Positions 28,415 through 58,895 of a stretch of 64,000 bases of DNA are shown here, one piece after another; position 1 is the first letter of the stretch, and each line of letters begins with the position of its first letter. The notes below the pieces were generated by a model. The model worked only from the letters and a program-made list of their open reading frames with translations. It did no database searches and was not told the origin of the DNA. This DNA is from an uncultured Candidatus Saccharibacteria bacterium (GTDB lineage: Bacteria > Patescibacteriota > Minisyncoccia > Phycocordibacterales > XYD1-FULL-46-19): NCBI GenBank assembly GCA_964639285.1, contig CAZXCI010000003.1:31187-95186 (forward strand), read 5' to 3'. The position numbers and the translations under genes were made by a program.

Positions 28415-28417
28415 ATC

Positions 28418-29637: not shown

Positions 29638-30164
29638 TAAACAATGGGCTCACGATATGGATCCCTTGTCTTATTATCTCCTGTTTGAGGCGTAACGGCA
29701 ACTTCTTGTTTGGGGACATTGGCGATTGTTTTCATCTTATTGTCGAAAACTTGGGTTGCCGAAGGGCCAGGGGAAGCGGGAGTTGTCGCAGAACCCTCAA
29801 TTTTCTCTGGAGGAATTTGTTTTTGCTCCGTTTCTTTGACGGGTTCGGCTCGTTCCCGAGAAAGTTCCTCTAGTTCTCGACGAATCTTGGAGAAAATTTG
29901 TTGGTTGAGATCGTAGATTATCAAGTTGACAATATCTTGAGCTAGACCAGTTTTATCTTTTATTTTTTGGCTAAAGTCCGTTACTTTAGTTAGTCCAACC
30001 ATGGCTAGGGTGATTTCTTCAGCGATTCTTCCCAGTTGATCAACGTGTAAATTGTATTTTTTTCGTAATTCATCAGTGATAGCTCCCATATCGAGGTTGG
30101 CGATAACACTCTTTAGTTTTTCGGGCAGAGTGTCAAATTTTTTTCCGATTTCTTGTTTATTCAT
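29637..30164 (-). CDS. Hypothetical soluble protein (175 aa) of the T4SS-like operon
   Basis: Translationally coupled (1-nt overlap) to the PrgI-like gene; Pro/Thr-rich C-terminus. Confidence 0.45.
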   Translation of the reverse strand: MNKQEIGKKFDTLPEKLKSVIANLDMGAITDELRKKYNLHVDQLGRIAEEITLAMVGLTKVTDFSQKIKDKTGLAQDIVNLIIYDLNQQIFSKIRRELEELSRERAEPVKETEQKQIPPEKIEGSATTPASPGPSATQVFDNKMKTIANVPKQEVAVTPQTGDNKTRDPYREPIV

Positions 30165-30193
30165 TTTTCTATTTATCTTTTAGCCTTTTATAA

Positions 30194-35700: not shown

Positions 35701-36276
35701 AAGTTTGTCTCTTGTTTCTTGTTCGCCTCCCGCTGGCTCTCCGTAACCGTTCGCTCCTTCTCCGCCTTGCTCGTCTGAGTCAGGATTCTGAACGGGGTCG
35801 CTATCGCTGGGTTGGCCTTGGTCTCCTGCCCCATCCCCTTCCCCAGTTGTGCCATCTCCTGTTCCGCTCCCCGTCCCGGTCGTGCCAGAACTTCCACCGC
35901 TATAACCGCCAGCCTCAGCTTCACAACGGATCTCGTCTTCTTTTTGGAGTTTGGCCAACTCTTCGGCTTCTTTGTCTGTAGTTTTCTTATCTTTCCCTAC
36001 TCTTTCTTCTAGGGAGTCTTCTCCGCTATTGCCACTGGCGCCATTACTGCCACTATCTCCACCGTCGCCTCCACTGTTGATGATGATGTCGGCGACGTCA
36101 TTTATATCAATGTCGCCAACGCTATCACTTCCTCCACCACTGGGGAAACCCGTATCAGGGACAGGAAGGTTAGATATCTGAGCCCCAGTATTTTGGGCGA
36201 TTAAGAAAATAACTAAGGCTGAGAAAATGACCAGAGTTAGTTTCTTGAATATATTTTGTGAGGTTCTCGTGGTCAT
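32710..36276 (-). CDS. Giant secreted/surface protein (about 1190 aa) with acidic Gly/Asp/Ser-rich N- and C-terminal regions and a central array of degenerate Leu/Asn/Ser-rich repeats
   Basis: Signal peptide after the internal Met (MTTRTSQNIFKKLTLVIFSALVIFLIAQNTGAQ); the ORF opens at 36321. Repeats of the form S/N-L-N-x-x-L-x-x-L-x-(I/L)-x-x (LNHVLENLNISNLSEVIDEL, LGGIIGRLSYESNETIL, LDRIIGRLGDGAINGIFGNLSEGNLNSILGNLNMSSLNDIFSQLGGGQLNQVLSFL). 4-nt overlap with the VirB6-like gene. Confidence 0.6.
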   Translation of the reverse strand: MTTRTSQNIFKKLTLVIFSALVIFLIAQNTGAQISNLPVPDTGFPSGGGSDSVGDIDINDVADIIINSGGDGGDSGSNGASGNSGEDSLEERVGKDKKTTDKEAEELAKLQKEDEIRCEAEAGGYSGGSSGTTGTGSGTGDGTTGEGDGAGDQGQPSDSDPVQNPDSDEQGGEGANGYGEPAGGEQETRDKLAAEGITVNKADCAGRDFRTVKGGCTSVGGLPQHSIDRSAEINREIGGGLVITSGTEAGHVEHKPGANVVDYSPDNAKLNEYIEKHTVSTTISKKTKFKTHYLDNGDVFTREKGAKYGDHWHAKLSGTVGGGKTALIDSPLDKLITYIDNFLSDNLSLHNLVHAEKTDPVRTVLLGTTPVDLDKATPTDLSEILLALDESQINDSFNRILSSPTESTINIRDIITKLPYDSLNHVLENLNISNLSEVIDELPSSNLGGIIGRLSYESNETILTQFSSSQLTSLLNDLNDTSLNNFINNTYNLEDFDDVIDNISSGSLDRIIGRLGDGAINGIFGNLSEGNLNSILGNLNMSSLNDIFSQLGGGQLNQVLSFLDGDVSETVFSLLGEGALGNILNNGLPEIVDSVLSDLPEDLLGDMVNGLSVDGLIDDFSGALDELPGVSDIINSIPGLEGILDEGGVVDTVVDTVTDTVTGGLYVPVVEQNGQLMSLTNSIERRTREIRELNVQICTHIRAVKRIQQRFEEKMVEDAAVRRAASTVIEQYKGALLGEEGLIKKGYQDSNGNSAPLYVVNEGVLIAQARDEAKRIVLDRIRNSKNMYKDEIADALQIDSVGRPFQPTLTEKEIKIISSAEENGFKASDQSEEIVAQEKNTSILATLRNIPFLGYLANPIDKLSSLFGIKTSYAEEEASDSEDYTDAEYWTALLKMFQPQNNRYGSYLIANDQLKRSQALAEANVRDEMIAGQGFLPVRKCNKWITDPEDSSIKTCIMWETQTPASIVKETAAQGMGTRLTQYETAKDMGDINVGNEPNVSELYNFTPTTDGGGAPGPGMVGPDGIPDQIEQASTYTPDTSEWGTEGGTGEGDDGDGTDGGEGGTEWSNFTGLLDLVIGESDSPSSDSLNLLELLIEFLANAYKNIKPLVYFADKDKGDGQYLLYWASPNATDCKAGNDWANGEEIIKKKGDSLTKRANLLVTASTTAREYKLDCTNDKGTTQKTMSI

Positions 36277-36280
36277 GTTA

Positions 36281-36973
36281 TTAATTACTGACAAAAATCT
36301 GGATTTTTTCGTTATCAGCAAAAGTTACCTTATTTAAAACAAAGAATTGGTTTAGCGTTTCGATAGATTTGATGAAGTCTGAATAATCATGGTTGAAGGT
36401 CTGGCTATTTTCCAGAGCGAGAGTCGGCTGAGACAAGGCTTGTTCCATATTCTTAAGACGACTGACAAGCAGATTTATTTGACTGACGATTTTGAAATGG
36501 CGGCTGGCCAATTCCTTGGGAACGGGAATTTTTGTCAGACTTAGAGCTACCTGCTCGTGGAGAATCCTAGAGAAGGTTACTGATTTGATGAACGAACCGT
36601 CATTTTTATCAATGGCCGACAGCACGGCCCTGGCCTCACTCTCTCTCCTCCCGCTTAGGGGTTTGAAGGTCTCGGCCAGACGAAGTCCGTAGGTTCGGAA
36701 GTCTTGCGGACTGCTTACTCCAGTAGTCGAACTAGCGATGATCGGTTTCTCGGCCAATTGACTGATCGAGACATTTGTTTTATTGGAGGAGAGTTCCTGT
36801 CGAGAGAGGTCCTCGAGGTTCTTATGTTTTTCTAAAATGTCGCTTAGATAAGCTTGTCGTTTTTTTTCTTCTCTGGATTTTTTTTGATGGCCGACAAACC
36901 ATAAAGAGACAATGGTAAGTACCACTAAAACAATCACTAGCCGTATCACATTTTTGCTTGGTAAATGGGCCAA
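36281..36973 (-). CDS. Membrane-anchored hypothetical protein (230 aa), first gene of the T4SS-like operon
   Basis: N-terminal TM (LVIVLVVLTIVSLWFV), coiled-coil-like remainder. Confidence 0.45.
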   Translation of the reverse strand: MAHLPSKNVIRLVIVLVVLTIVSLWFVGHQKKSREEKKRQAYLSDILEKHKNLEDLSRQELSSNKTNVSISQLAEKPIIASSTTGVSSPQDFRTYGLRLAETFKPLSGRRESEARAVLSAIDKNDGSFIKSVTFSRILHEQVALSLTKIPVPKELASRHFKIVSQINLLVSRLKNMEQALSQPTLALENSQTFNHDYSDFIKSIETLNQFFVLNKVTFADNEKIQIFVSN

Positions 36974-37058: not shown

Positions 37059-38096
37059 ATGAGAAATTTTTTTTTAATTTTTCTAATTTTGTTGATGGTT
37101 CTTCTGTCTTTCCCTACTCCCTCTTCCGCTCAAGTTCTGCCTTTTGGTGGGAAAATCCTCTATACAGACTGGTGTTCTTGTTCAATGAATTTACTCATTT
37201 ATTATTTGCGGGTTCGCGATTTCATGCCTCAACTTCTCTCTTATCGGGTCGGAGGGAGTAAGCTGTATTCTTATTATAATCTTACCGAGGGGATGGAGAT
37301 CTTGGGGACGACCGTTTCTCCTGATGTTTGTTTGACAGGATCACATTGCCATCCTCATCCTCTTGTCGCGGCCATGGGAACTCCTTGGCTAATTAGTATT
37401 GTCGGGACTTCTGACCCTTCTCATCGAGCCTCTGGCTCTGGCTCTGGCTCCGGTTCGGGCTCAGGTACAGGTACAGGGACAGACACGGGGACAACTGGCC
37501 CCACTTCGACCACGACCCCAGACGGAGCTCCTCCTTGTTCTAGTGATGCTGACCGTCTCGCTTCTAGTTATATTATGGCCAATGAGGGTTGGAGTAATTC
37601 CTGTTATCCCGATGCCGGAGGACGCTCGGTTGGAGTTGGCCACTTCATCACTCCTGGGGACGGGATTGATTGTAGCCGTCCTCTCTCAGATGCTGAAGTC
37701 CAAGAGCTCTTTGAAGAAGATTATCCTCAATATCGGGCTGATGCTGAAGCTTCAGCCGCTCGTAACGGTGTCGATTGGGATGCTTTGTCGCCAGAGCGAC
37801 AGGCGGTGCTCACTGATATGGCTTACAATATGGGAGCTGAAGGGGGAGGGGGGCTGAACGGCTTCACTGAGATGTGGGGGGCGATAAGACAAGCTCAATC
37901 AACCAGTGGGACCCAAAGTCAGCATCATTGGAATACGGCTGGTGATGAAATTATCGAGACTACGACACCTTATGGACAAGGTGCTCGAGCCGGGCGAAAC
38001 AGGACAATAATGAGGACGAATGGTAGTTCGACCATCAATCGCCAAGTTAATTCCGATCCTCACGCTAGAAATTATTGCGCTGAAGAGACAACTTAG
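37059..38096 (+). CDS. Secreted GH24 (phage/T4-type) lysozyme-like muramidase with an N-terminal Cys/His-containing domain and a (SG)n/(TG)n/Thr-rich linker; candidate VirB1/PrgK-type cell-wall hydrolase
   Basis: Signal peptide; linker SGSGSGSGSGSGTGTGTDTGTTGPTSTTTPDG; C-terminal domain ANEGWSNSCYPDAGGRSVGVGHFIT...LSDAEVQELFEEDY...NGVDWDALSPERQAVLTDMAYNMGAEGGGGLNGFTEMW parallels T4 lysozyme (EGYYTIGIGHLLT...KDEAEKLFNQD...[31 protein letters not shown]). Confidence 0.65.
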   Translation: MRNFFLIFLILLMVLLSFPTPSSAQVLPFGGKILYTDWCSCSMNLLIYYLRVRDFMPQLLSYRVGGSKLYSYYNLTEGMEILGTTVSPDVCLTGSHCHPHPLVAAMGTPWLISIVGTSDPSHRASGSGSGSGSGSGTGTGTDTGTTGPTSTTTPDGAPPCSSDADRLASSYIMANEGWSNSCYPDAGGRSVGVGHFITPGDGIDCSRPLSDAEVQELFEEDYPQYRADAEASAARNGVDWDALSPERQAVLTDMAYNMGAEGGGGLNGFTEMWGAIRQAQSTSGTQSQHHWNTAGDEIIETTTPYGQGARAGRNRTIMRTNGSSTINRQVNSDPHARNYCAEETT

Positions 38097-38501: not shown

Positions 38502-39326
38502 TTATTCTTTATTTATTTGTTTATCATTTATCTCTTTTGCCAAACATTCCCAATTCTCAAGACTTAAGTTTTCGGCCCGGGCTCTTGGTGGAACTTGGCA
38601 TGCCTGGAGAGTGGCCTCTTCTACTTCGAGATTACTCTTGAGTAGTTTTCGCTTTTGTTTGAAGCCTTTTTTCAAAATTTCAAAAAATGTTTTTTCTTTG
38701 ATCTCGCTAAAGAAATCACGAGAAATATTTTCGATTAGGAGAATAGCTGAATCAACTTTTGGTTTGGGTTCGAAGGCTCCCGCCGGGACAGTTTTAACAT
38801 ATTTGGGGGTACCATAAACTTTGACCGAGATCGAGAGGAGAGATTCTTTTTTATCGCTGGCGATAATTCTCTTGGCCACCTCCTTCTGTATCATCAGGAC
38901 CATTCGGCCTGGCTGGCATTCTTCTTCGCTCAAGAATTTCCTGATTACTTGGCCGGTGATGTAGTAAGGAATATTGGCCACTAATTTGTAATTTTTCTCC
39001 GAGAAAAGTTTCGAGGCGTTGACTGTCAGGATATCGCCGTGAGCGATAAACATTTTTTTGTCATTTATTTCAGGCGCAAATTCTTCAAGTAAGTGATCGA
39101 GGAGTTCATCGTCCTTCTCGACGGCGAGAACCTGAGCCCCTGTCTCGATTAGGGCGCGAGTGAGGGCGCCTCTTCCTGGTCCAATCTCTAGGACTTCCTC
39201 CCCCTCCTTCAAGTCAGCTGTCTTGATGATTTCTCTAATTGCACTTTCTGATTTTAGCCAATTTTGCCCTAGGGATTTCTTGGCTCGGGGCTTCGTCTCT
39301 AAGTTTTTATTTTCTTCTTTCTCCAT
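38502..39326 (-). CDS. rsmA: 16S rRNA (adenine1518/1519-N6)-dimethyltransferase
   Basis: LGQNWLKSESAIREI, SAM-binding LEIGPGRGALT, NIPY motif. Confidence 0.85.
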   Translation of the reverse strand: MEKEENKNLETKPRAKKSLGQNWLKSESAIREIIKTADLKEGEEVLEIGPGRGALTRALIETGAQVLAVEKDDELLDHLLEEFAPEINDKKMFIAHGDILTVNASKLFSEKNYKLVANIPYYITGQVIRKFLSEEECQPGRMVLMIQKEVAKRIIASDKKESLLSISVKVYGTPKYVKTVPAGAFEPKPKVDSAILLIENISRDFFSEIKEKTFFEILKKGFKQKRKLLKSNLEVEEATLQACQVPPRARAENLSLENWECLAKEINDKQINKE

Positions 39327-39653: not shown

Positions 39654-41570
39654 TCAGACTATCGTCCAGAGGCCGGATTCGGCCTCAATGAGGTTCTCCT
39701 CGATATCGAAGATAAATTCGGACGGCATATTGACGCGACGTTGACCGAAAACCTGGCGAGTTTGAGCGTAAGAAAGATAGAGCTTGTGGCGGGCTCGAGT
39801 AATCGCCACGTAGAAAAGTCGGCGTTCTTCCTCGCCGTCTTTTTTGCTATCGCTTAAGCCGGCGTGCGGGAAGAGGTCCTGTTCGAGACCAGTGACGAAG
39901 ACATAATCAAATTCAAGCCCTTTGGCTGCGTGGACAGTCATTAATTTTACTCCAACCTTCGGCTGGTCGAGCTCGTCTTGGTCTGTTGCCAGAGCAATCT
40001 CGGTCATCATGGCCTCTATCGCCTCTTCTGGCTCTAAGTTGTCATATTTGGTGGCGACACTGACTAATTCTTTAATATTTTCTAATCTTTCTAATCCTTC
40101 TTCGCCGTCTTCCCTTAGACTTTTTTCTAGGCCGGTTTGGGTGAGGATAAATTTTATTAACTCAGAGGGTTTATTACTTAGAGCAAAATCTCCAATCTCG
40201 CTCACGATTTTCTTAAATTGGGAGATTTTCTGTCTCATCGTCGCTGGCAATTCTTCGAATTGTCCGCTGGCCAATTTAAGGAGCGTTATTTTACCAATGC
40301 CTCGAGCGGGTATATTGATGACACGTTTTGCACTTTCCCAATCATCAGGGTTAAGACTAACTCTAATGAAGGCGACGATATCTTTGACCTCTTTGCGTTC
40401 GAAGAAGCGGGTGCCGAGTACTTGGTAGGGCACATTTTCTCGAAGGCAAGCCTCTTCAAGCACTCGGGATTGGAAATTGGCTCGATATAATACAGCAATC
40501 TCGTTTGGGTGTGTTTCTTCCCCGATCAATTCCTTAGCTTTCTGGGCGACAAAACCAGCTTCATCCCCCTCCTCCATACCGGTATAGAGTCCGATTTTGG
40601 CCCCGGCTTTATTTTTAGTAAAAAGTTTTTTCTCGTGACGTTTTTTGTTTTTTTCAATGATTTGGTTAGCGGCAGTGAGGATTGTTTGGGTCGAGCGATA
40701 ATTTTCTTCAAGCAGAACAATTTTGGCCTTAGGATAATCTTTCTCAAAATGAAGAAGGTTGGTGAAGTCGGCTCCGCGCCAGCCGTAGATAGATTGGTCC
40801 ATGTCCCCTACCACACAGATATTCTTTTCTTTGTGGGCTAGAAGATTGGTTAGTTCGTACTGGATAACGTTGGTGTCTTGGTACTCATCGACGTGGATAT
40901 AGTGGAAACGGTCTTGGTAATGAGCGAGAACGTCAGGATTCTTTTTAAGAAGTTCCACGGTCTTTAGCAGGAGATCGTCGAAGTCGAGGGCTTTGTTGGT
41001 CCTTAATAATTCTTCATATCTGGCCCAGACTTGGCTAATAACTCTGGCAAAAGGATTATTCGAATTACTATTCTGGAATTCTTGCTGGCTAATGTTGTCT
41101 CCTTTTTGGCGAGAAATAGTGTTGAGCACCTTCCTTGGCTCATATCTCTTCTCGTCAAGACTCATGGCACGCATTGCCTCTTTAACCTTAGAGATTGAGT
41201 CGTCACGGTCGAGAATTGAGAAGTGGTGAGAGAGCCCAAGTCGGTCGCCATGGTGTCTTAATATATAGACTCCGAGAGAGTGGAAGGTGGTTACCATGGG
41301 TTCAACCCTTACTCGCCCCTCCAAGAGTTTAGTTACTCGTTCGCGCATTTCGCGCGCCGCCTTGTTGGTGAAGGTGATGGCCAAGATATTCTCGGGTTTA
41401 ATCCCTGACTCAATAAGGTGCAAGATGCGATAGGTGATGGTTCGTGTTTTGCCCGCGCCAGCACCAGCAATGACTAATAAGGGCCCGTCTTGATGCAAGA
41501 CAGCCTCCTTCTGTGGTGGATTTAATTGGTCAAGATAAGACATAAAATGTTTTAATTGATAGACGAGCAA
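39654..41570 (-). CDS. pcrA: ATP-dependent DNA helicase, UvrD/PcrA/Rep family (638 aa)
   Basis: LNPPQKEAVLHQDGPLLVIAGAGAGKTRTITYRILHLI helicase motif I, motifs II-VI (VDEYQDTN, TFHSLG ... VHAAKGLEFD). Confidence 0.85.
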   Translation of the reverse strand: MLVYQLKHFMSYLDQLNPPQKEAVLHQDGPLLVIAGAGAGKTRTITYRILHLIESGIKPENILAITFTNKAAREMRERVTKLLEGRVRVEPMVTTFHSLGVYILRHHGDRLGLSHHFSILDRDDSISKVKEAMRAMSLDEKRYEPRKVLNTISRQKGDNISQQEFQNSNSNNPFARVISQVWARYEELLRTNKALDFDDLLLKTVELLKKNPDVLAHYQDRFHYIHVDEYQDTNVIQYELTNLLAHKEKNICVVGDMDQSIYGWRGADFTNLLHFEKDYPKAKIVLLEENYRSTQTILTAANQIIEKNKKRHEKKLFTKNKAGAKIGLYTGMEEGDEAGFVAQKAKELIGEETHPNEIAVLYRANFQSRVLEEACLRENVPYQVLGTRFFERKEVKDIVAFIRVSLNPDDWESAKRVINIPARGIGKITLLKLASGQFEELPATMRQKISQFKKIVSEIGDFALSNKPSELIKFILTQTGLEKSLREDGEEGLERLENIKELVSVATKYDNLEPEEAIEAMMTEIALATDQDELDQPKVGVKLMTVHAAKGLEFDYVFVTGLEQDLFPHAGLSDSKKDGEEERRLFYVAITRARHKLYLSYAQTRQVFGQRRVNMPSEFIFDIEENLIEAESGLWTIV

Positions 41571-41597
41571 CTTATATCATAATATAATTAAAGACAT

Positions 41598-42029
41598 ATG
41601 AATAATCTTGAAAGTGAGATCGCTGAATTACAAAAAATGATCGAGGCCAAGCGCGATCAATTAGAGAAGGAGGTAGGCATTGTTGAAGAGAAGGAGTTGG
41701 TTCGTCAGTCGGTGCGAGAAATGTTTCTCGATACGACGACACCGCCTCTTTCTTCGTCGGCCAACCCTTTGCCTGCTCAAAGTCCCACCCCGGTTAGCAC
41801 GCCTTCGGTCAAAGTTCAGCCAAATTCTGCTAGCGCTAGTTACTTAGATTATCTCGATGCCGACACGACAGAGAAGATCAACCACTTGATCGAAGAGATT
41901 CCGGCTAAGGGTGTAGCTCTTGTCATTGACGAGGTCGCGGCACAGGAGCCTTTTGTCATCGACGCTTTCCATGATGCCCTTGTTGACAAGCTCTACGATG
42001 AGCTCAAGGCTCGTGGTTTAGTAAAATAA
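41598..42029 (+). CDS. Hypothetical protein (143 aa), 8 nt upstream of the coupling-ATPase gene
   Basis: N-terminal coiled coil, Pro/Ser-rich linker, C-terminal alpha-helical part; no family recognised. Confidence 0.45.
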   Translation: MNNLESEIAELQKMIEAKRDQLEKEVGIVEEKELVRQSVREMFLDTTTPPLSSSANPLPAQSPTPVSTPSVKVQPNSASASYLDYLDADTTEKINHLIEEIPAKGVALVIDEVAAQEPFVIDAFHDALVDKLYDELKARGLVK

Positions 42030-42036
42030 ATTAATA

Positions 42037-44400
42037 ATGCCCCCCCATCTAATTTTAAGTTTTGCAATTATTGTTGTCGTGGTCGCTGTGGCCGGTATTG
42101 TTCTTTGGTATAAGCGGAAGCATCGCCAATGGGAAAGTCTTAACCTCAAGATTCTTTCAATTAAGATTCCTCGGACCGGAAGCGAAGACAAAGTAGATTT
42201 TCTGAAGGAGATAAACTTGACCGAACAACTTTTTAATTCACTCTCTTCAATTAAACAGCCTTTTGTTTTTGAGCTGTCGGTTAAGAATGTGGGCGAAGAA
42301 ATTAATTTTTTCCTCTCGGTCCCTCGCTCGGTTGTTGATTTTGCTAAGCGGGAGATTCAAGGTCTCTTCTTAGACGCCAAGGTTGAGGAAGTTCCCGACT
42401 ACACCATCTTCCAACCGCAAGGGACGGCCGTGGCTGGTTATCTCGCCCTAGACAAAGAATATTTTTTACCGATCGGCACATACCAAGAGGCTCAAGCTGA
42501 TATTTTTGCCCCGATCCTAAGTACTTTATCTCGGGTTAATGAACGTGATGAGGGGGCTTCGGTTCAGATTGTCGTGCGCCCAGCTCCTGAGAAAACGAAA
42601 AAGACTCTCATTTGGGTCGCTGAAAAACTTAAAAGCGGGGCCAAGTTTTCCGATGTTTCTCGTCTTGGAAGCCTAAGTTTAAAAGATGTTAGTCAGGAGT
42701 GGAGTGGTAAACCAAAACCAAAGGAGGGGGAAGCCGGTCCCCCGCCCAAGATCGATGAAGAGATGGTCAAGGCGGTGGGACTTAAGCTGGCCAAACCGCT
42801 CTTCGAGGTTAATGTTCGTCTTGTTACCTCCTCGGTTGATGTTAACCGAGCGGAGGATATGTTTGTGGCTCTCTCGAGTGCTTTTTCTAAATTTTCTTCA
42901 CCGATTCGCAATGGTTTCAAAATTATCAAACCAAAGAAAAATCGTCACCTTGTCTTCAATTATGTCTTCCGTGATTTCAATCGTTATCAGACGATTGTTC
43001 TCAACACTGAAGAATTGGCCAGCATCTTCCACCTTCCAACTCACACTTCTGATGTCCCTAATGTCTCTTGGCTCCGGGCTAAGGAAGCCGCCCCTCCAGA
43101 AGTTATGCCCAAGGAAGGTCTCAAGTTGGGGGATAGTGTCTTCCGGGGAGCAATTAAAGAGGTTCGTTTGACCGACGAGGACCGTCGACGTCATCTCTAT
43201 GTTGTTGGGCAGACTGGTACTGGTAAATCTGTCTTGATTCAAAATTTGGCAATGCAAGACATGATTAATAATAAGGGTCTTTGCGTTATTGACCCTCATG
43301 GCGAGACAATTGAGAAGATCCTGGCTTACGTTCCTAAAGATCGGATTGACGATATTATTGTCTTCGACCCCGGTGATCGGGAGCGACCAATTGGGCTTAA
43401 TATGCTCGAATATGATTTTAACAAACCAGAAGAAAAAACCTTTATCGTTAATGAACTTCTGTCTATTTTTAATCAACTATTTGATAAGCAGGCGCTTGGA
43501 CCAATGTTTGAACGATATATGCGCGGAGCTCTCAATCTCTTAATGGACGATATGGTCAATGAACCGGCGACTTTGGTGGAAGTTCCCCGCGTTTTTACCG
43601 ATGACGAGTTTCGCAAGCGCAAATTAGCCCGCTCGCAAAATCAGCAAATCATCGATTTTTGGACAAAGGAAGTGCCTAAGACCTCGGGTGATCAGAGTCT
43701 TGGTAATTTTGCTCCCTACGTTTCGTCCAAATTTGATAATCTTATTTCCAATTCCTATATTCGCCCCATTATTGGACAACCCAAATCTTCTTTTGACTTC
43801 CGCCAAGCTATGGATGAAGGGAAGATTATTCTGGTAAACTTGTCTAAGGGTAAAGTTGGTGATCTCTCCTCATCTCTATTGGGCATGGTGATCGTAGGTA
43901 AAATTCTTAAAGCTGCTCTTTCTCGCGTTGATATTGCTGATGAGCGTTCTCGTCGGGATTTCTATCTCTATATTGATGAGTTCCAGAACTATACGACCGA
44001 ATCAATTGCTACTATTCTCTCTGAGGCCCGTAAATATCGGCTCAACCTTATTGTCGCCCATCAATTTATTGCTCAACTCAAAGACAACATTCGCGAGGCT
44101 GTATTCGGCAATGTGGGTAACATGATCTCCTTCCGAGTTGGCCCGCCTGACGCTGAGACCCTGGTTAAACATTTCGGTCCGGTCTTCAATGAGAAGGATC
44201 TCATTAGTATTGAGAATCTCAATGCTTTTACCAAGATTCTTGTCAATGGTGAACCGTCCAAACCTTTCAATATGAAGATTACTTGGCCCACGGGTGGCTC
44301 AGCCGTCGTTCGAGATGGTCTTAAGGAGCTCTCTCGCCTTCGTTTCGGCCAAGATCTCGACCAAATTGAGGAAGATATCCTTAAACGCCTGAGAGATTAA
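42037..44400 (+). CDS. Membrane-anchored type IV secretion coupling-protein-like ATPase (VirD4/TraG/TraD- or FtsK-like)
   Basis: N-terminal TM helix; Walker A HLYVVGQTGTGKSVLIQN; Walker B LYIDEFQNY; NLIVAHQ; overall 787-aa architecture typical of T4CPs. Confidence 0.55.
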   Translation: MPPHLILSFAIIVVVVAVAGIVLWYKRKHRQWESLNLKILSIKIPRTGSEDKVDFLKEINLTEQLFNSLSSIKQPFVFELSVKNVGEEINFFLSVPRSVVDFAKREIQGLFLDAKVEEVPDYTIFQPQGTAVAGYLALDKEYFLPIGTYQEAQADIFAPILSTLSRVNERDEGASVQIVVRPAPEKTKKTLIWVAEKLKSGAKFSDVSRLGSLSLKDVSQEWSGKPKPKEGEAGPPPKIDEEMVKAVGLKLAKPLFEVNVRLVTSSVDVNRAEDMFVALSSAFSKFSSPIRNGFKIIKPKKNRHLVFNYVFRDFNRYQTIVLNTEELASIFHLPTHTSDVPNVSWLRAKEAAPPEVMPKEGLKLGDSVFRGAIKEVRLTDEDRRRHLYVVGQTGTGKSVLIQNLAMQDMINNKGLCVIDPHGETIEKILAYVPKDRIDDIIVFDPGDRERPIGLNMLEYDFNKPEEKTFIVNELLSIFNQLFDKQALGPMFERYMRGALNLLMDDMVNEPATLVEVPRVFTDDEFRKRKLARSQNQQIIDFWTKEVPKTSGDQSLGNFAPYVSSKFDNLISNSYIRPIIGQPKSSFDFRQAMDEGKIILVNLSKGKVGDLSSSLLGMVIVGKILKAALSRVDIADERSRRDFYLYIDEFQNYTTESIATILSEARKYRLNLIVAHQFIAQLKDNIREAVFGNVGNMISFRVGPPDAETLVKHFGPVFNEKDLISIENLNAFTKILVNGEPSKPFNMKITWPTGGSAVVRDGLKELSRLRFGQDLDQIEEDILKRLRD

Positions 44401-44472
44401 GGTGCTTTTTCTAGATCTTGCCGAGGGGATAACTTGATTGAAAAAAGGCTCTTTTTGGGCTAAGATGCGAAG

Positions 44473-45519
44473 GTGAAAAAGATCTGGATAGTCCCACTTT
44501 TTTTGTCTTTATTGCTAGTGGCGCAGACGGCCGAAGGAGGCATTTTCTCCTCTATTGTCGGCTTTTTTAGTCCTTCGGTGAGCAAAGTTAGCGCCAATGT
44601 CCTCCAAGAGGAAAACGAACAAACTGAGACAAATTCTCAAAATATGGACCTCTTAGAACCAGTGCTCGGGGAAACTTCGACGAGTTCCCCTCGTGACGAT
44701 GCAGAGATGTCCATTGTCAGTGGTGGTGCCGTTCTCCCTGAATCTGGGCCTTTAGGGACGATGGCTGATATTAAGGATACTCCAATGCCCTCAGATCTTA
44801 TTAGTGTCTATATTGTCCGTCCTGGAGACACCATTGGGACAATCGCTAAGATGTATAATGTCTCAGTCAATACTATTCGTTGGACTAACGAGCTTAAGAA
44901 AAGTGATGTTATTAAGCCAGGGGACAGCCTTATCATTCTTCCGATTACAGGTATCCAACACACAGTCAAGAAGGGTGATACAATTAAGAGCTTGGCCAAA
45001 AAATATGGGGGGAATTTTGAAGAAATTCTTGCTTATAATGATCTTGACCCCGCCAAGGGCTTGGTGGTTGGCGATACTATTATTATTCCTGACGGGGAGG
45101 AAAGTACGATCATCTCTTCGACTAAACCAGTGGCAAAGTCCCCATCTAAGTACAGTGGTCCAAGTTCCTCTGGTTACTTTATGAAGCCAGTTACTAATTA
45201 TCGCCGAACTCAAGGTCTCCATGGTTATCTTCACAATGCTATTGATATGGCCGCGTCTCTTGGCACCCCTATTTATGCGGCCGCTGAGGGTAAAGTTATC
45301 ATTGCTAAAGGTAGCGGTTGGAATAGTGGCTATGGTAATTATGTTGTTATCTCGCACCCTAACGGCACTCAGACTCTCTATGCTCATCTGAGTAAGTTAA
45401 ATGTCAGTGTTGGTCAACGCGTCGACAAGGGTGATAATATCGGAGGCATGGGTAGTACGGGCAAATCAACTGGTTCTCACCTTCACTTCGAGATTCGTGG
45501 CGCTTCGAATCCTTTCTGA
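44473..45519 (+). CDS. Secreted peptidoglycan endopeptidase: two LysM domains plus a C-terminal M23 (LytM) metallopeptidase domain
   Basis: Signal peptide; LysM repeats (YIVRPGDTIGTIAKMYNVSVNTIRWTN; HTVKKGDTIKSLAKKYGGNFEEILAYN); M23 motifs HNAIDMAA...YGNYVVISHPNGTQTLYAHL...GSTGKSTGSHLHFEI. Confidence 0.8.
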   Translation: MKKIWIVPLFLSLLLVAQTAEGGIFSSIVGFFSPSVSKVSANVLQEENEQTETNSQNMDLLEPVLGETSTSSPRDDAEMSIVSGGAVLPESGPLGTMADIKDTPMPSDLISVYIVRPGDTIGTIAKMYNVSVNTIRWTNELKKSDVIKPGDSLIILPITGIQHTVKKGDTIKSLAKKYGGNFEEILAYNDLDPAKGLVVGDTIIIPDGEESTIISSTKPVAKSPSKYSGPSSSGYFMKPVTNYRRTQGLHGYLHNAIDMAASLGTPIYAAAEGKVIIAKGSGWNSGYGNYVVISHPNGTQTLYAHLSKLNVSVGQRVDKGDNIGGMGSTGKSTGSHLHFEIRGASNPF

Positions 45520-45543: not shown

Positions 45544-47079
45544 TTACTCAAAAATATTTTTAGGTCTGTATTGTAAAGCTTCAAGCAGATGTTGATCTTG
45601 GATGTTGTCAGAATTATCGAGATCAGCAATGGTGCGGGCCAGTTTAATTATGCGATGGTAGGCGCGGGCTGACAAATTTAATCTTTTGGCCGAGTCGTTG
45701 AGAAGTTTTGTTGCGGAGTCAGAGAGTGGGGCATATTTTTTAATCTCTTTAACACCCATCTCTCCATTGGTATTAACGGTTTTAATTCCGGCAAAACGTT
45801 TGGCCTGTTGTTCTCGGGCGAAAAGTACCCTCTCGCGAATTTTTTGCGATGATTCCCCGCTTGGTTTATCACTTGATAATTCTTCGTGTTTGACCTGGGG
45901 CACATCGAGCCAAATATCAATGCGGTCGATAATCGGCCCCGAAACTTTGCGACTATATTTCTGGATTTGGGATTGTGTGCAGGTGCAATCTTTAATCCGC
46001 GAACCCTTGAAACCGCAAGGGCAAGGATTAAGGGCAGCGACTAAGATAAAGCTGGCGGGGAAATTGATAGATCCACGAGCGCGAGCAACGCTTATCACTT
46101 TGTCTTCGAGTGGCTGGCGAAGAGATTCAATCACTTTTTTATCAAATTCGGGGAATTCATCTAAGAAGAGGACCCCACGGTGAGCCATGGTGATCTCGCC
46201 CGGCTTAGGCCAAGCTCCGCCGCCAACCAGAGAAACATAAGATGAAGTATGATGAGGGGAACGGAAGGGTGGATGGGTGACAAGTTCCTCGCTTAAGACT
46301 CCAGAGGCTGAATGAATCCCGGTAACTTCAATAATTTCGTCAATCGAGAGAGGTGGCATAATGGCAGTGAAGGCGCGAGCGAGCATTGTCTTGCCAGTGC
46401 CGGGCGGTCCATACATGGCCACATTGTGGCCACCCGCCGCCGCAATCTCTAATCCCCTTTTGGCAGTGTGTTGACTTCTAATTTCTGAGAAGTCGGAGGC
46501 ATAATCTTTGTCTATAATGATTATTTCTGTCTCTCTGGCTGGGAGGATTTTGGGTTCTTCGACCTTGGGAGATAGGTGGGCGGTAATTTCTTTAAGTGAT
46601 TGACAAGGATAAATAGTAATACCCCTAATCAGGGCCGCTTCCCTGGTATTTTCGGCTGGGAGATAAATTTCCTCGAAGCCTTTTTCTTTAGCTTTTTGGG
46701 TGATGAGAAGGGCACCGGCCACTCCACGTAAACTACCATCGAGAGCTAGTTCCCCAACAAAGAGTTTTTTCTTCGGGTTAAATTTGATCTCCGTGGCTGC
46801 GGACAGATAACCCAAGGCAATGGCTAAATCAAAAGTTGAGCCTTCCTTTCTAAGATTGGCCGGGGCGAGGGAGACGATAACCTTCTTGTTTCCCTTTTGC
46901 GGGGCCTTGAAGCCAGAATTTTTTATGGCTGAGTTGATACGATCCTTTGCTTCGGCGACGGCTTTGTCGGGGAGGCCGACAATGCTGAAGGATTGTAGTC
47001 CCCGATTGATATCAACTTCAACCTCAATAATATCGGTCTTAAGACCGATAATTTGAGCGGAGTTTATCTTTGCAACCAT
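45544..47079 (-). CDS. comM: YifB/ComM family Mg-chelatase-like AAA+ ATPase (competence-associated)
   Basis: N-terminal Lon-like domain (VEVDINRGLQSFSIVGLPD), Walker A MYGPPGTGKTMLA, Walker B VLFLDEFPEF, Cys cluster CPCGFKGSRIKDCTC. Confidence 0.8.
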   Translation of the reverse strand: MVAKINSAQIIGLKTDIIEVEVDINRGLQSFSIVGLPDKAVAEAKDRINSAIKNSGFKAPQKGNKKVIVSLAPANLRKEGSTFDLAIALGYLSAATEIKFNPKKKLFVGELALDGSLRGVAGALLITQKAKEKGFEEIYLPAENTREAALIRGITIYPCQSLKEITAHLSPKVEEPKILPARETEIIIIDKDYASDFSEIRSQHTAKRGLEIAAAGGHNVAMYGPPGTGKTMLARAFTAIMPPLSIDEIIEVTGIHSASGVLSEELVTHPPFRSPHHTSSYVSLVGGGAWPKPGEITMAHRGVLFLDEFPEFDKKVIESLRQPLEDKVISVARARGSINFPASFILVAALNPCPCGFKGSRIKDCTCTQSQIQKYSRKVSGPIIDRIDIWLDVPQVKHEELSSDKPSGESSQKIRERVLFAREQQAKRFAGIKTVNTNGEMGVKEIKKYAPLSDSATKLLNDSAKRLNLSARAYHRIIKLARTIADLDNSDNIQDQHLLEALQYRPKNIFE

Positions 47080-47562: not shown

Positions 47563-48816
47563 TTATTTTACAACAGGTTTTGGGGTTAGGAACGAGCTTA
47601 AGATTTTTTCTAGAGTGATTTCGTTTGTCGTTACCGCAATCGTGTTTTTATCTAGCCAGGTATAGGCAGCTAAGGTCATGTTGTCTTGATTGGTGACCAT
47701 GCGAATATCGCGATTTTTAACCATTTTATCTTGGAAAGGGGTGAAGCGAATTCTCGTTTCTGTCTCAGTATCGATAAAGGGTAACAAAAGTTGGCTAATT
47801 ATTCTATTCTCATCATAAAGAAGAGCGTCGGCGGAATTTTTATAATATTTTGTTTTGAAAATATAAAAGGGCTCATCTTGTACCCCCAGTTGGAATCCAA
47901 GCATGAAGTCAGAATCAAGGAAACGTAATAAGTCATTGGTTATCGCAAGGCCGGTACTGGTGGCAAAAAGTTCTGGTCCGGCAATTTTCTTCTCGATGAT
48001 GAGACCTTGGTCGGTGTTTCTTGATTCTTCGTAAATAAAATAGATATCTTTGATTCTCTCTTTGGGCCCTCCTTCGAGGGAGACGGGCACAGTTAATCTG
48101 AGATCTTTAATTTCTTGTCGAACTTGCTCAGGGGTCATACCCTTTAGGTCGATGGCGACATGTTCGTCGGCAAAGATAATTGGATCATGGGTGATTTGGG
48201 TGGGGGCGATACTTTTCTGTGTTCGTTGCCAGGCTGACCAGCTAATAGCAGTTAATCCACTTAGGAAGATAATTAAGCTGAGACTAAAGATTATTGTTTT
48301 TCTCAAGGAAACGGGCTTCTCCGCTTCTTTTTTTTCTTGCTTGTTGGCTTGGGCCAATCTGGCGGCAGTCATTCCTCGATTTTTAATGGCGTCACTTAAG
48401 TCATCGGTCAGGGTATGAACCGAAGAAAGACGACTAAGGGGGGCCCTCTTTATCCCTTCAATTTTTTTCTTTGATTCAAGAATTTGTTTTATTTTCTCTT
48501 GACGAAGTTTTTCTTGAGCGAAATCTTTCTCTCTTTGTTCTCGGCCAATATCTTTTTTCCTTAATTCTTCTTGTGCCTTTCTTTCCTCCTCGAGTTCGGC
48601 CAATTTTTTTTGAGCCTCTAATTTATGGGCGATGGCTCGGTCTTTCTCTTCCTGGATTTTCTTTTGTTCGTCAGAGGCCATAGCCTTAGCCGCCTCAATT
48701 TTTCTTTTCTCAAGGTATTGTTCTTCTTCCTTCCAATTAGCAATATCTCGCTCGCCCGTTAAAGCTAATCGAGCCCGAAGCCTTTTGTCGCTGTCGTTGT
48801 TTTGAGGAATGGCCAT
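47563..48816 (-). CDS. Bitopic membrane protein: roughly 170-aa cytoplasmic E/K/R-rich coiled coil, one TM helix, roughly 220-aa extracytoplasmic domain (hypothetical)
   Basis: TM helix IIFSLSLIIFLSGLTAISW; N-terminal heptad-rich charged segment. Confidence 0.5.
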   Translation of the reverse strand: MAIPQNNDSDKRLRARLALTGERDIANWKEEEQYLEKRKIEAAKAMASDEQKKIQEEKDRAIAHKLEAQKKLAELEEERKAQEELRKKDIGREQREKDFAQEKLRQEKIKQILESKKKIEGIKRAPLSRLSSVHTLTDDLSDAIKNRGMTAARLAQANKQEKKEAEKPVSLRKTIIFSLSLIIFLSGLTAISWSAWQRTQKSIAPTQITHDPIIFADEHVAIDLKGMTPEQVRQEIKDLRLTVPVSLEGGPKERIKDIYFIYEESRNTDQGLIIEKKIAGPELFATSTGLAITNDLLRFLDSDFMLGFQLGVQDEPFYIFKTKYYKNSADALLYDENRIISQLLLPFIDTETETRIRFTPFQDKMVKNRDIRMVTNQDNMTLAAYTWLDKNTIAVTTNEITLEKILSSFLTPKPVVK

Positions 48817-48821
48817 ATTTG

Positions 48822-50132
48822 CTATTTTGCCCAGGGGAAAATCTTTTTGTTCACTCGCGCGAGGTCATCAGAGGTTATCCTATTGTCTTTTTTGGCAGTT
48901 TCAAGATCTCCCCTTAGGGTGCGCAAAGGTTCAAGTTCTCCTTCGGACTCTTTTATCTCATCAATTGTCGAACGATTTTCTCCCATTGTTTGTTTTTCTC
49001 TTTCGGCCTCAGCCTCGGCGTTCTCGCGTTTGATTCGCTCAAGTTCGAGGGCTCGGAGAAGAGCCATTTCTTTTTCTTCAGCTTCGCTTCTTGGCACTTC
49101 TTCCGAAAGAATTGTCTGTTGTTTGGGAAGAGGTTGAACCTTCGGAGTTTGTTGTTCTTTGCTTACTTCTGTCGCTTGTTTTTGGCTATTATCGATAGCT
49201 TCGGCAATTTTCTTTTTTAAATCCTGCTCCTTCTCCTGTTGGGCCATGAGGCGTCGAGTTGTTTCTGTTCTTTGTCGTTCTTCTTCGGCTTTGCGTAAGG
49301 CTTCTAGACGATCCTTTTCGAGGGATTTCATCTGCTCCTCTGTTTGTTTTTGGGCTTCGGTCTGCTTCCTCTCCTCTTCGGCGCGGAGACGATCTTCCTC
49401 TGCTCTCTTGATGTCGAGCAAGCGCTTTCTTTCGATTTCCTCAGCTCTTTTCTTCTCCTCGACTTGCCTCAAGGTGTCTTGTCGGCGTTTTTGCTCATCT
49501 AGTTCATGTTGTTGGCGCAAGACTTCTTGTTGAAGGAGCATTTTCTCGTCAATGGCTTGAATTTTTTGGCGCAGTTTTTCTTCCTGAGTGAGAAGCTCTT
49601 GATATTTTTGTTTCACCTCACTGATTTGTTCGTCGATCTTCTGGATTTTTTCTTCGATTAGCCATTTTTCTTCTTCAGTTTTTTTGCGAGACTCTTGAAC
49701 TTGCCATCGTTTTTGTTCTAATTCTCTTCTCGCTTTTGGTTCGAGGGTCACCTCTTCTTGGCTTTCTATACTTGTCTCTTCGTCCTCGAGTTTGTCCTCT
49801 CTTTCTAAGATGGGCTCAAGTATTTTCTTTAAGCTCCCTCGCTTGTCGTCGAGGTTTACCCAAGTGAGCTCCATTAACTCCTTCTCGTGATCGAGAGAAA
49901 GAAGTAGCTTGTTTAGTTGTTGTTTTTCTTCGCTTGCCTCCTCCTCTTTCTCGGTGGCTTCTCGGCGGATTGTTCGATCAAGGCCCTCCATGGCAATTTT
50001 TGCTCGACGGAGTTTTTCTTCACGACTCTCGCTTTTTTGTTTTGTCTCTGTTGGCTCAGGAACGACGGCCGGATTATCAGAATTATCATCTGTCTGCGAA
50101 ACAGGCGTTGTTTGTTTTACAACATCAACCAT
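48822..50132 (-). CDS. 436-aa E/K/R/Q-rich predicted all-coiled-coil protein (hypothetical)
   Basis: Continuous charged heptad-like sequence (EEKQQLNKLLLSLDHEKELMELT...RQQHELDEQKRRQDTLRQVEEKKRAEEIERKRLLDIKRAEEDRLRAEEERKQTEAQK). Confidence 0.5.
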   Translation of the reverse strand: MVDVVKQTTPVSQTDDNSDNPAVVPEPTETKQKSESREEKLRRAKIAMEGLDRTIRREATEKEEEASEEKQQLNKLLLSLDHEKELMELTWVNLDDKRGSLKKILEPILEREDKLEDEETSIESQEEVTLEPKARRELEQKRWQVQESRKKTEEEKWLIEEKIQKIDEQISEVKQKYQELLTQEEKLRQKIQAIDEKMLLQQEVLRQQHELDEQKRRQDTLRQVEEKKRAEEIERKRLLDIKRAEEDRLRAEEERKQTEAQKQTEEQMKSLEKDRLEALRKAEEERQRTETTRRLMAQQEKEQDLKKKIAEAIDNSQKQATEVSKEQQTPKVQPLPKQQTILSEEVPRSEAEEKEMALLRALELERIKRENAEAEAEREKQTMGENRSTIDEIKESEGELEPLRTLRGDLETAKKDNRITSDDLARVNKKIFPWAK

Positions 50133-53998: not shown

Positions 53999-54445
53999 TT
54001 AATCACCTCCTATCCTTTCTTTTATGATACGGGTTGAAACATTCAAAGCCCAATCTCTAACTTGATTCCTATGAGACCCTACCACATTCCTCCAGTTAGT
54101 GTCAAGCCCATTTTTGACACAATAACGAGAGAGAATATTTAAATTACTGATCAGAGCTTCGTGGGCTGATCGTCGGGCTCGGTCGGCATTCTCTGTTTCT
54201 TTGGGATCCTCCTTTCTTATCCTAGAGCTACTCAACTTGTCAACCGCCCCAACATATCGAATGACCGAATCTTCGAGATCTTTGACCAGGGCCTTGGATG
54301 TCTCGTCATGATTTCTGAGCTTTTTTATCTCTTGATAGACATTAAGCGCCTTTTCTTCTTCTTTTGTATAGATCTCATCAAAATCGTGACCCTCTTCGTG
54401 CTTAGCCAAATCTCCCCAAGATTCATTTAAAAATGGTTCAAACAT
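53999..54445 (-). CDS. Hypothetical 148-aa protein with an R-x(4-6)-H (HEPN-like?) motif RARRSAHEAL; possible toxin-like partner of the 77-aa ORF
   Basis: Start set at the internal Met (the ORF opens at 54613 and would overlap the xer promoter region); motif assignment is weak. Confidence 0.4.
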   Translation of the reverse strand: MFEPFLNESWGDLAKHEEGHDFDEIYTKEEEKALNVYQEIKKLRNHDETSKALVKDLEDSVIRYVGAVDKLSSSRIRKEDPKETENADRARRSAHEALISNLNILSRYCVKNGLDTNWRNVVGSHRNQVRDWALNVSTRIIKERIGGD

Positions 54446-54649
54446 ATAATTAATAATACTACGTTTTGTGGCAAATAGGGAATTTTCTCTCTTGTTGGGG
54501 TTAATATGTCGCACAATATTTGATATACTTAGAGGTGTGGCAGATTTAAATAGATTAAAACAAGAATTTCCTGCCCTACTTCGCCCCGACTTCACTAAAG
54601 TTTCGCCGGGCAAGCAAGGCTTCGTAGGACCAAAAACTCTTATTATTCT

Positions 54650-58891: not shown

Positions 58892-58895
58892 CAAA

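Follow-up and report, generated by a model that had tools for sequence, protein, structure and literature searches.

Gene content of the locus and its surroundings

Three forward-strand open reading frames (ORFs), which an initial annotation had delimited in a window of 64,000 nt (the whole stretch of DNA analysed here), were confirmed and are listed below with two promoter-like sites found by consensus scan.

41556-41588, + strand: promoter-like TTGATA-16-CATAAT, overlapping TAGACG-17-TATAAT, between uvrD and the small ORF
41598-42029, + strand: small ORF (143 aa), with no transmembrane (TM) helix, signal peptide or Pfam family
42037-44400, + strand: ATPase of the VirB4/VirD4 superfamily (787 aa), with a TM anchor, a DUF8128 domain and a motor like that of type IV coupling proteins (T4CPs)
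44438-44466, + strand: promoter-like site of the LysM/M23 gene
44473-45519, + strand: secreted 2xLysM + M23 endopeptidase (348 aa, GTG start), catalytic motifs intact

More than 3,654 homologues were found for the ATPase, the best 120 of which are full-length at 53-87% identity, and 52 for the small ORF. Because of these numbers, the ORFs are regarded as genuine genes and not as chance reading frames. Seven nucleotides separate the stop codon of the small ORF from the ATG of the ATPase. The divergent UvrD more plausibly starts at ATG 41543 than at TTG 41570, which would therefore leave a 54-bp divergent intergenic region holding the promoter-like TTGATA-16-CATAAT. A transcript from this site would be nearly leaderless. 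The scan returned 12 sites in the region, where 8.0 +/- 3.3 were expected, and the promoter-like site is therefore weak evidence.

The wider gene context agrees with the initial annotation, which had reported a type IV secretion system (T4SS)-like operon, rsmA, UvrD/PcrA, comM/yifB and pilB.

11594-13309: PilB, 30 kb from the ATPase gene, amid unrelated housekeeping genes
23472-36973, - strand: MPF-FATA-like, origin-proximal T4SS operon, straight after dnaA-dnaN-rnpA-yidC
24726-25169, - strand: T4SS_pilin of the operon, a weak profile match
26582-28414, - strand: VirB4 of the operon
29197-29637, - strand: PrgI/VirB3 of the operon
38502-39326: RsmA
39654-41570 (as annotated): UvrD/PcrA, divergent from the small ORF
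45544-47079: ComM/YifB
54650-55675: XerC/D-like match to the integrase family, the only such match, ~10 kb from the ATPase gene

The operon also holds large unannotated proteins, and DUF192 followed by RsmA lies between it and UvrD. No Pfam match to a relaxase was obtained in the 64,000-nt window. Membership of a defence system was considered and rejected, as PADLOC returned only a generic mad8 match (55 bits) and weak HerA matches and the context is that of a core gene; UvrD matches the GajB models in PADLOC, as any UvrD would.

The third gene had been described as encoding a secreted double-LysM M23 peptidase, which is borne out by two LysM domains, an N-terminus resembling a signal peptide and an M23 domain (PF01551, 116.5 bits) with intact zinc-binding motifs HNAID (HxxxD) and HLH (HxH). 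Its placement in one unit with the ATPase was not sustained. The gene adjoins the ATPase gene only in loci L001, L003, L007 and L010; in L001, two genes on the opposite strand come between them. Synteny of the LysM/M23, UvrD and ComM genes and of the nearby T4SS operon is confined to close relatives (~54% identity or more), and they are missing around the orthologue in most of 80 species-level GTDB loci. Given this restricted adjacency and the intervening genes in L001, the peptidase was rejected as a component and is probably a lineage-specific neighbour; judged by synteny, UvrD and ComM are likewise neighbours conserved in this lineage only, outside the machine. Beyond close relatives, the neighbours of the orthologue are housekeeping genes, often dnaX, which lies downstream on the same strand in 25 loci.

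Architecture of the ATPase

The features of the ATPase are as follows.

42046-42108, + strand: single N-terminal TM helix (~residues 4-24), then KRKHR (sequence, hydropathy and predicted model)
42133-43122, + strand: DUF8128 domain (residues 33-362), folded like the N-terminal domain of VirB4/TrwK
43150-44286, + strand: RecA-like motor domain (~residues 372-750; profile, homologue and structure comparisons)
43207-43230, + strand: Walker A GQTGTGKS (residues 391-398), invariant in 34 homologues
43426-43818, + strand: all-helical insertion in the motor (~residues 464-594), at the position of the TrwB all-alpha domain
43969-43986, + strand: Walker B YIDEFQ (residues 645-650), invariant in 34 homologues

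The membrane anchor and both Walker motifs had been noted previously and were upheld. The anchor is one hydrophobic helix (Kyte-Doolittle 19-residue mean of 3.2; residues 3-36 are helical in the predicted model), and by the positive-inside rule the KRKHR that follows would place the remainder of the protein in the cytoplasm. Of 85 orthologues, 70 have a TM-like segment; the 12 fused forms all lack one. The motor also carries invariant EARKY and AHQ motifs.

The protein had been called a VirD4/TraG- or FtsK-like ATPase, and profile searches for the T4CP and FtsK/HerA families were proposed to tell these apart. The VirD4/TraG part of this assignment stood. PF02534 matched residues 372-684 with 35.8 bits (threshold 20.1) and PF10412 with 26.1 (threshold 20.5), and TraG-D_C, at 21.9, was barely below its threshold of 22. 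The FtsK part did not stand, as FtsK_SpoIIIE gave 15.7 bits in the Walker A region, below threshold; DUF87 matched with 26.5 (threshold 23.2) over residues 384-423 only. The NCBIfam T4CP equivalogs were far under all cut-offs (e.g. 43.7 vs 366), so that membership of the T4CPs holds at the superfamily/Pfam level only. A weak match to CedD of NCBIfam was also obtained (24 bits, cut-off 600). Among VirB4 profiles, AAA_10 scored 15.1 (threshold 27.5) and TIGR00929 30.2 (cut-off 643), the CagE_TrbE_VirB profile had no match in the Pfam search, and a PDB sequence search at E<=1 returned no chain named VirB4 or TrwK. The nearest structures to the AlphaFold model are the coupling proteins TrwB and DotL, with FtsK clearly more distant, although the margins are small (TrwB 23.9, VirB4 C-terminal domain 22.5, HerA 22.4) and HerA and DptH are nearly as close as TrwB. 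On profile scores and the predicted model, the motor is closest to type IV coupling proteins. Profiles and the predicted model revealed no FtsK gamma domain, HerA HAS barrel or other recognisable DNA-binding module, and no NurA-like partner was found among the neighbours.

The initial annotation overlooked the VirB4-like N-terminal domain, as it did the fusion evidence for the 143-aa partner described below. The DUF8128 (PF26449) assignment is the precomputed annotation of an identical protein (P0001), and is also given, N-terminal to the P-loop domain, to nearly all full-length homologues listed. Carriers of the domain fall into 2,889 clusters at 50% identity, and full-length proteins are always ~800 or ~920 aa. 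In the predicted model the domain has the VirB4-type N-terminal fold, which structure comparison found elsewhere only in VirB4. As in T4CPs, the nucleotide-binding domain contains an inserted all-alpha domain, but in place of a two-helix TM domain straight before it there are one helix and a 330-residue domain. Because this domain has the VirB4/TrwK fold, the ATPase is classed as a VirB4/VirD4 hybrid and not as a canonical T4CP. The VirB4 N-domain of R388 makes contacts within the inner-membrane complex (entries 7o41, 7o42 and 8rtb). A literature search for DUF8128 returned no papers, and hhalign gave no signal between the ATPase profile and the 222-aa ORF adjoining VirB4.

The small partner and the distribution of the family

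In the product of the small ORF, a linker rich in P, S and T connects a charged N-terminal helix to a conserved helical module at the C-terminus, with the motif KGI...P..lD.FHD.Lv..lY..L. The proposed coupling of this ORF to the ATPase gene was strengthened, in that the partner gene lies directly upstream in 35 related loci (iterated HMM) and is fused in frame to the N-terminus of the ATPase, in place of the TM helix, in 12 further loci. By this linkage and fusion, the 143-aa product is a genuine partner of the ATPase. Homology of this Paceibacteria partner (family A) to family B, the 165-aa ORF that lies upstream in other classes, was not supported (hhalign probability 0.2%); family B may be an analogue.

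Based on sequence comparisons, the DUF8128 ATPase is a strongly conserved core gene of the ultra-small Patescibacteria (CPR) and not a mobile element, because its homologues are so numerous, its neighbours are housekeeping genes and the G+C of the locus equals that of the flanks. The T4SS operon is ~5 kb away from the gene here, an arrangement kept in L001, L003 and L007. Among the 80 GTDB loci, none has a VirB4 or PrgI homologue within 10 kb of the orthologue.

Near-universal, mostly virB4-unlinked T4CP homologues of Patescibacteria have been known since 2025 (Quinonero-Coronel et al., PMC12102498). They occur in 2,918 of 3,035 genomes (~96%) at roughly two copies per genome, which would imply a second T4CP-like paralogue in the present genome, and only 148 of 5,713 are near virB4; VirB4 itself is found in fewer genomes (2,417 of 3,035). 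The same study reported that the patescibacterial T4SS is relaxase-less throughout the phylum, raised exaptation of the T4CP homologues, and described a Southlakia t4cp homologue, which may not belong to the DUF8128 family, as non-essential for epibiotic growth, whereas T4SS genes were essential (PMC12102498). The patescibacterial T4SS cluster has no recognisable coupling protein (PMC10633639). Patescibacteria are naturally competent, CPR members share a conserved canonical com system, and transformation in Southlakia, the one genetically tractable member, requires ComEC (PMC10633639).

Candidate roles and comparison with known systems

We tentatively favor, at somewhat short of an even chance, a two-protein Patescibacteria-specific module in which the DUF8128 ATPase provides the coupling or energising activity for the origin-proximal T4SS, which lacks a relaxase. 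Whereas the family of the protein, its domain folds, its linked or fused partner and its status as a core gene are established, we infer a hexamer, its docking onto the T4SS and the nature of the substrate. Judged by homology, this P-loop ATPase, which belongs to the branch of the FtsK-HerA superfamily that comprises VirB4 and VirD4, is probably hexameric. It would lie on the cytoplasmic side of the membrane, and its VirB4-like N-domain would dock it onto the inner-membrane platform (VirB3/VirB4/VirB8-type) of the T4SS, which is chromosomal and relaxase-less. The docked protein would be the substrate-coupling or energising ATPase that the T4SS otherwise apparently lacks. The small, soluble partner may serve as an adaptor or regulator by binding the ATPase at its membrane-proximal end, and in fused lineages would take over targeting from the membrane anchor. 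Proximity to the operon in this lineage, the pairing of a T4SS cluster devoid of a recognisable coupling protein with nearly ubiquitous T4CP homologues, and the R388 precedent speak for T4SS coupling. Against it stand the small structural margins, NCBIfam scores far below cut-offs, and the fact that the structures are predictions.

Further observations that count against T4SS coupling also favor a serious rival, to which we assign a substantial but minority probability: an exapted, T4SS-independent translocase, cytoplasmic or membrane-associated, that would work with its small partner in the metabolism of DNA or the chromosome (segregation, repair or replication-associated remodelling). T4CP homologues are more widespread than VirB4 and mostly unlinked to it, none of the 80 loci has VirB4 nearby, the fused orthologues are anchorless, and the Southlakia homologue, if it is of this family, is dispensable where the T4SS is essential. 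In addition, DNA-metabolism neighbours recur (dnaX, and in this lineage uvrD/pcrA and comM), and the structural distance to HerA and DptH is little greater than that to TrwB. However, such a translocase would have neither a recognisable DNA-binding module nor a NurA-like partner, its N-domain fold is otherwise that of a secretion-machine component, the TM anchor is retained in most orthologues, and housekeeping neighbours in tiny, gene-dense genomes are weak functional evidence.

The role in DNA uptake originally proposed, in which the ATPase would act as a competence translocase with ComM, PilB and the peptidase, is improbable. T4SS-derived uptake systems exist, namely ComB of H. pylori and the archaeal Ced system, and natural competence, the ComM/YifB and PilB genes in the window and the weak CedD match are in keeping with this role; however, ComB operates without a T4CP, the ComM and M23 adjacency is lost beyond close relatives, PilB is distant, and transformation in Southlakia depends on ComEC, and the canonical com system is found CPR-wide. 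The missing relaxase had been taken to favor uptake over export, but its absence is phylum-wide and is therefore no specific guide to the direction of transport.

A canonical coupling protein of a present or former integrated conjugative element is very improbable, since above-threshold Pfam T4CP matches and a nearby T4SS operon are offset by the lack of a detected relaxase, a sole integrase match that is XerC/D-like and some distance away, G+C equal to that of the flanks, vertical phylum-wide conservation among housekeeping neighbours, and a non-canonical architecture. An FtsK/SpoIIIE chromosome-partitioning translocase, suggested by the single-pass anchor, the P-loop motor and the weak match over Walker A, is effectively refuted, as the Pfam scores and the model comparison contradict a best match to that family.

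In the only species tested, epibiotic growth depends on the patescibacterial T4SS, and the cargo and substrate selection of this system are at stake; a concrete candidate for the missing coupling function is an ATPase that is near-universal, combines a VirB4 docking domain with a coupling motor and has an obligate small partner. A bolder reading, which we consider doubtful, is that DUF8128 ATPases form a third, previously unrecognised VirB4/VirD4 lineage as well as, with a dedicated small adaptor, the 'missing' coupling ATPase of the essential T4SS by which Patescibacteria would exploit their hosts. If so, they would be either an intermediate predating the VirB4/VirD4 split or a later chimera, and the TM-anchored and adaptor-fused soluble forms would be two recruitment routes for one motor. 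The hybrid architecture also bears on VirB4/VirD4 divergence. If the ATPase is T4SS-independent, it would represent a secretion ATPase exapted to a core cellular function in reduced genomes.

Unlike the HerA, FtsK and DptH translocases, the ATPase has no HAS barrel, FtsK gamma domain or NurA/Sir2/DUF partner, and its N-domain is of VirB4 type. It differs from VirB4/TrwK/TraC in that VirB4 sequence profiles are not matched above threshold and that it has its own TM anchor, whereas those proteins rely on an adjacent VirB3; moreover, the operon in the window already has a bona fide VirB4. Compared with T4CPs (VirD4/TrwB/TraD/DotL; PF02534, PF10412), which usually have two TM helices and a periplasmic loop, it has one helix, or none in the fused orthologues, and canonical T4CPs lack the 330-residue VirB4-like domain that it carries between anchor and motor. 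No relaxase was detected in the window, and the ATPase gene belongs to the chromosomal core and is in most cases not linked to a T4SS. The counts in PMC12102498 derive from HMM hits only, and the DUF8128/VirB4-like N-domain, the small partner and the fusions are not described there. The window reproduces the dnaA-proximal T4SS arrangement of that study, with the ATPase gene within ~11 CDS of virB4, which is the minority arrangement there, and the 787-aa ATPase fits its description of T4CP homologues that are VirD4-type, present in ~96% of genomes, rarely by virB4, relaxase-less and possibly exapted.

The ATPase locus and its surroundings

The features that concern us here are the following.

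Features of the ATPase locus and related secretion genes (window position, strand, description)
11594-13309: PilB
23472-36973, minus: type IV secretion system (T4SS) operon encoding VirB3-like PrgI, a VirB4-type ATPase and a weakly matching T4SS pilin
41598-42029, plus: small partner ORF, 143 aa, stop 7 nt before the ATPase ATG
42037-44400, plus: ATPase ORF, 787 aa
44473-45519, plus: LysM/M23 ORF, 348 aa, 72 nt after the ATPase ORF

The three plus-strand ORFs lie exactly where the initial annotation had placed them, and the locus is a real, well-conserved feature. The gene context it described also holds in the window annotation, with DUF192, RsmA and UvrD/PcrA following the T4SS operon and separating it from the ATPase, ComM/YifB downstream, and PilB. 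Remaining genes are housekeeping (ruvABC, polA, fpg, PBP1, PNPase, CCA-adding enzyme, tRNAs), and G+C is uniform across the region. The operon is directly preceded by dnaA-dnaN-rnpA-yidC, the replication-origin region (19451-23488; dnaA at 20758-22152), where G+C falls to 0.33 at 20-22 kb. The UvrD/PcrA ORF (39654-41570, minus) as listed has a TTG start 27 nt from the small partner's ATG; the ATG at 41543 appears the more plausible start and would leave a 54-bp divergent promoter region.

Several other features of the window were recorded. Two very large T4SS-operon proteins, of 1,203 aa (32710-36321, minus) and 839 aa (30194-32713, minus), have almost no Pfam signal; the sole match, to MgtE_N, covers residues 426-503 in the larger protein and is not usual in T4SS components, and their homologues are syntenic in three relatives carrying the ATPase orthologue (loci L001, L003, L007). 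AT skew is strongly anomalous at 48-50 kb (-0.43) because of two adjacent genes (47563-50132, minus) for highly charged E/K/R/Q-rich coiled-coil proteins of 436 aa and 417 aa, the latter with a central TM segment; the two fall in no Pfam family and are syntenic in close relatives. A PemK/MazF-type toxin gene (15111-15515, minus) lies between ruvB and yebC/ruvC. A tyrosine recombinase (54650-55675, plus), XerC/D-like by domain content, adjoins a DUF3232 protein (53999-54613, minus), and a tRNA cluster including three tRNA-Pro (57683-59754) follows this pair.

Motor, N-terminal domain and distribution of the ATPase

As initially described, the ATPase carries Walker motifs and an N-terminal membrane anchor, the latter a single strongly hydrophobic helix followed by KRKHR. 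Across 34 homologues, neither Walker A (GQTGTGKS, 391-398) nor Walker B (YIDEFQ, 645-650) varies. The proposed family, VirD4/TraG- or FtsK-like, stood at the superfamily level and failed for FtsK. Pfam T4SS-DNA_transf scored 35.8 bits (threshold 20.1; residues 372-684), TrwB_AAD_bind 26.1 (threshold 20.5) and DUF87 26.5 (threshold 23.2, around Walker A only), whereas FtsK_SpoIIIE (15.7 vs 24) and AAA_10 (15.1 vs 27.5) remained below threshold. TraD and VirD4-like models rank top in NCBIfam, yet far under their cut-offs. A profile of the 34 homologues matched TrwB (2.9e-6), DotL (4.3e-4) and HerA (7.8e-4) among PDB sequences, with no VirB4- or FtsK-named chain among the nine matches at E<=1. 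Whole-protein structure comparison scored TrwB 23.9 (362 residues aligned), DotL 23.0, the VirB4 C-terminal domain 22.5, HerA 22.4, DptH 21.4, Cag-beta 21.4, TcpA 16.8 and FtsK 16.1, the lead of TrwB over VirB4 and HerA being small, and placed a helical insertion (residues 464-594) at the position of the TrwB all-alpha domain. Based upon these sequence matches, the structure comparison and the insertion, the motor is coupling-protein-like and clearly not FtsK-like.

Residues 33-362 are DUF8128 (PF26449) in precomputed annotation; a scan with the Pfam copy used here gave no match. Modelled alone (pLDDT 83.3), this domain returned 14 Foldseek matches at E<=1e-3, all of them TrwK chains of R388 T4SS structures (4e-8 to 7e-6). 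Using hhalign, the ATPase aligned weakly with the window's VirB4 from the segment ILNTEELASIFHLPT through Walker A (E 0.002, probability 13.5%). Given the TrwK matches and this alignment, the ATPase, as modelled, combines a VirB4 two-domain layout with a VirD4-type-scoring motor and its own TM anchor. The N-domain profile found 2,889 clusters at 50% identity (356 at E<=1e-30), in which full-length proteins fall into size classes of about 790-860 aa (domain start near residue 35-60) and about 910-977 aa (near residue 145-210).

More than 3,654 ATPase homologues were found by homology search. The best 120 are full-length with 53-100% identity, and all their source-given taxon names are patescibacterial (Paceibacterota, Vogelbacteria, Parcubacteria, Patescibacteria and one record labelled Woesebacteria). 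Scanning GTDB species representatives with the ATPase gave 594 confirmed loci, of which 80 (39-59% identity) were retained; these add Komeili-, Falkow-, Kerfeld-, Uhr-, Sung-, Nomura-, Yonath- and Campbellbacteria and Kazan, many automatic record titles being unreliable. From these numbers and this spread we conclude that the gene is a vertically inherited core gene and that the source of the window is a Paceibacteria-type CPR bacterium.

Small partner, fusions and the limits of the unit

The 143-aa ORF that had been called coupled to the ATPase proved to be its partner. An iterated HMM seeded with it showed that 35 non-redundant loci carry a same-strand homologue directly upstream of the ATPase, with gaps of -7 to ~240 nt (in one locus the called ORF runs into the start of the ATPase). 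In 12 further loci (L030, L057, L059, L060, L066, L070, L073, L077-L080, L083) the ATPase itself begins with the partner domain, fused in frame. Stand-alone and fused forms share a C-terminal helical module, KGI...P..lD.FHD.Lv, and in the fused proteins the partner domain passes straight into the first conserved DUF8128 strand, the TM helix being absent. Of 85 orthologues, 70 carry a TM-like segment; all 12 fused ones lack it, L030 being less certain owing to masked residues. Such in-frame fusion is classic evidence that the two proteins are physical and functional partners, and it puts the small one at the end of the ATPase nearest the membrane. It has no Pfam family, and its homologues are annotated only as hypothetical.

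In other classes, 20 loci have a different ORF of 150-200 aa at the same upstream position; since it has no detectable homology to the small partner, it may be an analogue. There, a same-strand string of this ORF (family B), the ATPase, a ~200-aa protein and dnaX recurs (L039, L045, L047, L048, L050, L052, L053, L056, L061, L068, L069, L071, L084, L085 and others); the ~200-aa protein, without a Pfam family, could be a further partner.

The LysM/M23 protein has a signal-peptide-like N-terminus and the two LysM domains and M23 domain initially reported, the last with intact HNAID and HLH motifs. It had been drawn into the unit wrongly. Neighbours were surveyed using tblastn and phmmer of window proteins against relatives' loci. 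The peptidase gene directly follows that of the ATPase in L003, L007 and L010, comes after two intervening opposite-strand genes in L001, and is farther off in L016, L051 and L086. With adjacency limited to close relatives and a promoter-like site of its own, it is best read as a cell-wall enzyme, a conserved neighbour by chance in this lineage, and was rejected as a module member. A 345-aa ORF (37059-38096, plus) between the T4SS operon and DUF192 has no Pfam matches; because its L001 counterpart (49% identical, 548 aa) weakly matches Phage_lysozyme, it may be a VirB1-like cell-wall hydrolase of the T4SS, and if so would be a better such candidate than the LysM/M23 protein.

UvrD, RsmA, DUF192, ComM, a DksA-like protein, PNPase and the T4SS-operon end are syntenic in the closest relatives only (L001, L003, L007). 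Neighbours elsewhere include cysS, serS, map, ndk, corA, a GT39-type glycosyltransferase and a GtrA-like protein, most commonly dnaX (same strand, after one short gene, in 25 loci). Within 10 kb of the orthologue, the 80 GTDB loci contain no VirB4 or PrgI homologue.

Possible roles and relation to known systems

Stand-alone genes resembling type IV coupling proteins (T4CPs) are already known to be ubiquitous in Patescibacteria. Among 3,035 genomes, Quinonero-Coronel et al. 2025 (PMC12102498) reported VirB4 in 2,417 (a monophyletic clade nested in MPF-FATA, often near dnaA), relaxases in only 103, and 5,713 VirD4-type T4CP homologues in 2,918, of which 148 were near virB4. These authors noted that the Southlakia t4cp homologue is non-essential for epibiotic growth, other T4SS genes being essential, and raised exaptation. 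Wang et al. 2023 (PMC10633639) described the Southlakia T4SS cluster as lacking recognisable coupling and relaxase proteins, and found ComEC to be needed for transformation; a 2025 review (PMC12857230) sums up the same points.

We tentatively favor, at a little short of an even chance, a coupling or energising ATPase of the chromosomal T4SS. The family assignment, the predicted folds, the partner linkage and the core-gene status are established here; the oligomer, the docking and the substrate are inferred. A hexamer, by homology, would be held at the membrane by the TM helix, its VirB4-like N-domain docking on a VirB3/VirB4/VirB8-type platform. The small partner would serve as adaptor or regulator, by analogy with CagZ for Cag-beta and TraM for TraD, and in fused lineages would take the anchor's place. 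The main rival, an exapted ATPase that does not depend on the T4SS and perhaps acts on DNA, is a real possibility of somewhat lower standing; a distribution wider than that of VirB4, the lack of linkage to virB4, the reported dispensability in Southlakia, DNA-metabolism neighbours and fused forms without an anchor all speak for it. DNA uptake, as initially suggested, is improbable and unsupported: the neighbours relied on are not conserved, and relaxases are missing phylum-wide. An ICE-borne canonical T4CP is very improbable and a true FtsK hardly credible, both being contradicted by composition, context and architecture.

In the searchable literature no paper names DUF8128, and we came upon nothing there about the VirB4-like N-domain, the small partner or the occurrence of fused as well as TM-anchored forms. 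The gene class is already catalogued; the hybrid architecture and the partner and fusion evidence add new detail to it in an incremental but useful way. In the window the T4SS lies near dnaA, as has been reported for Patescibacteria. The ATPase, with its VirB4-like layout and its own TM anchor, differs in architecture from canonical T4CPs.
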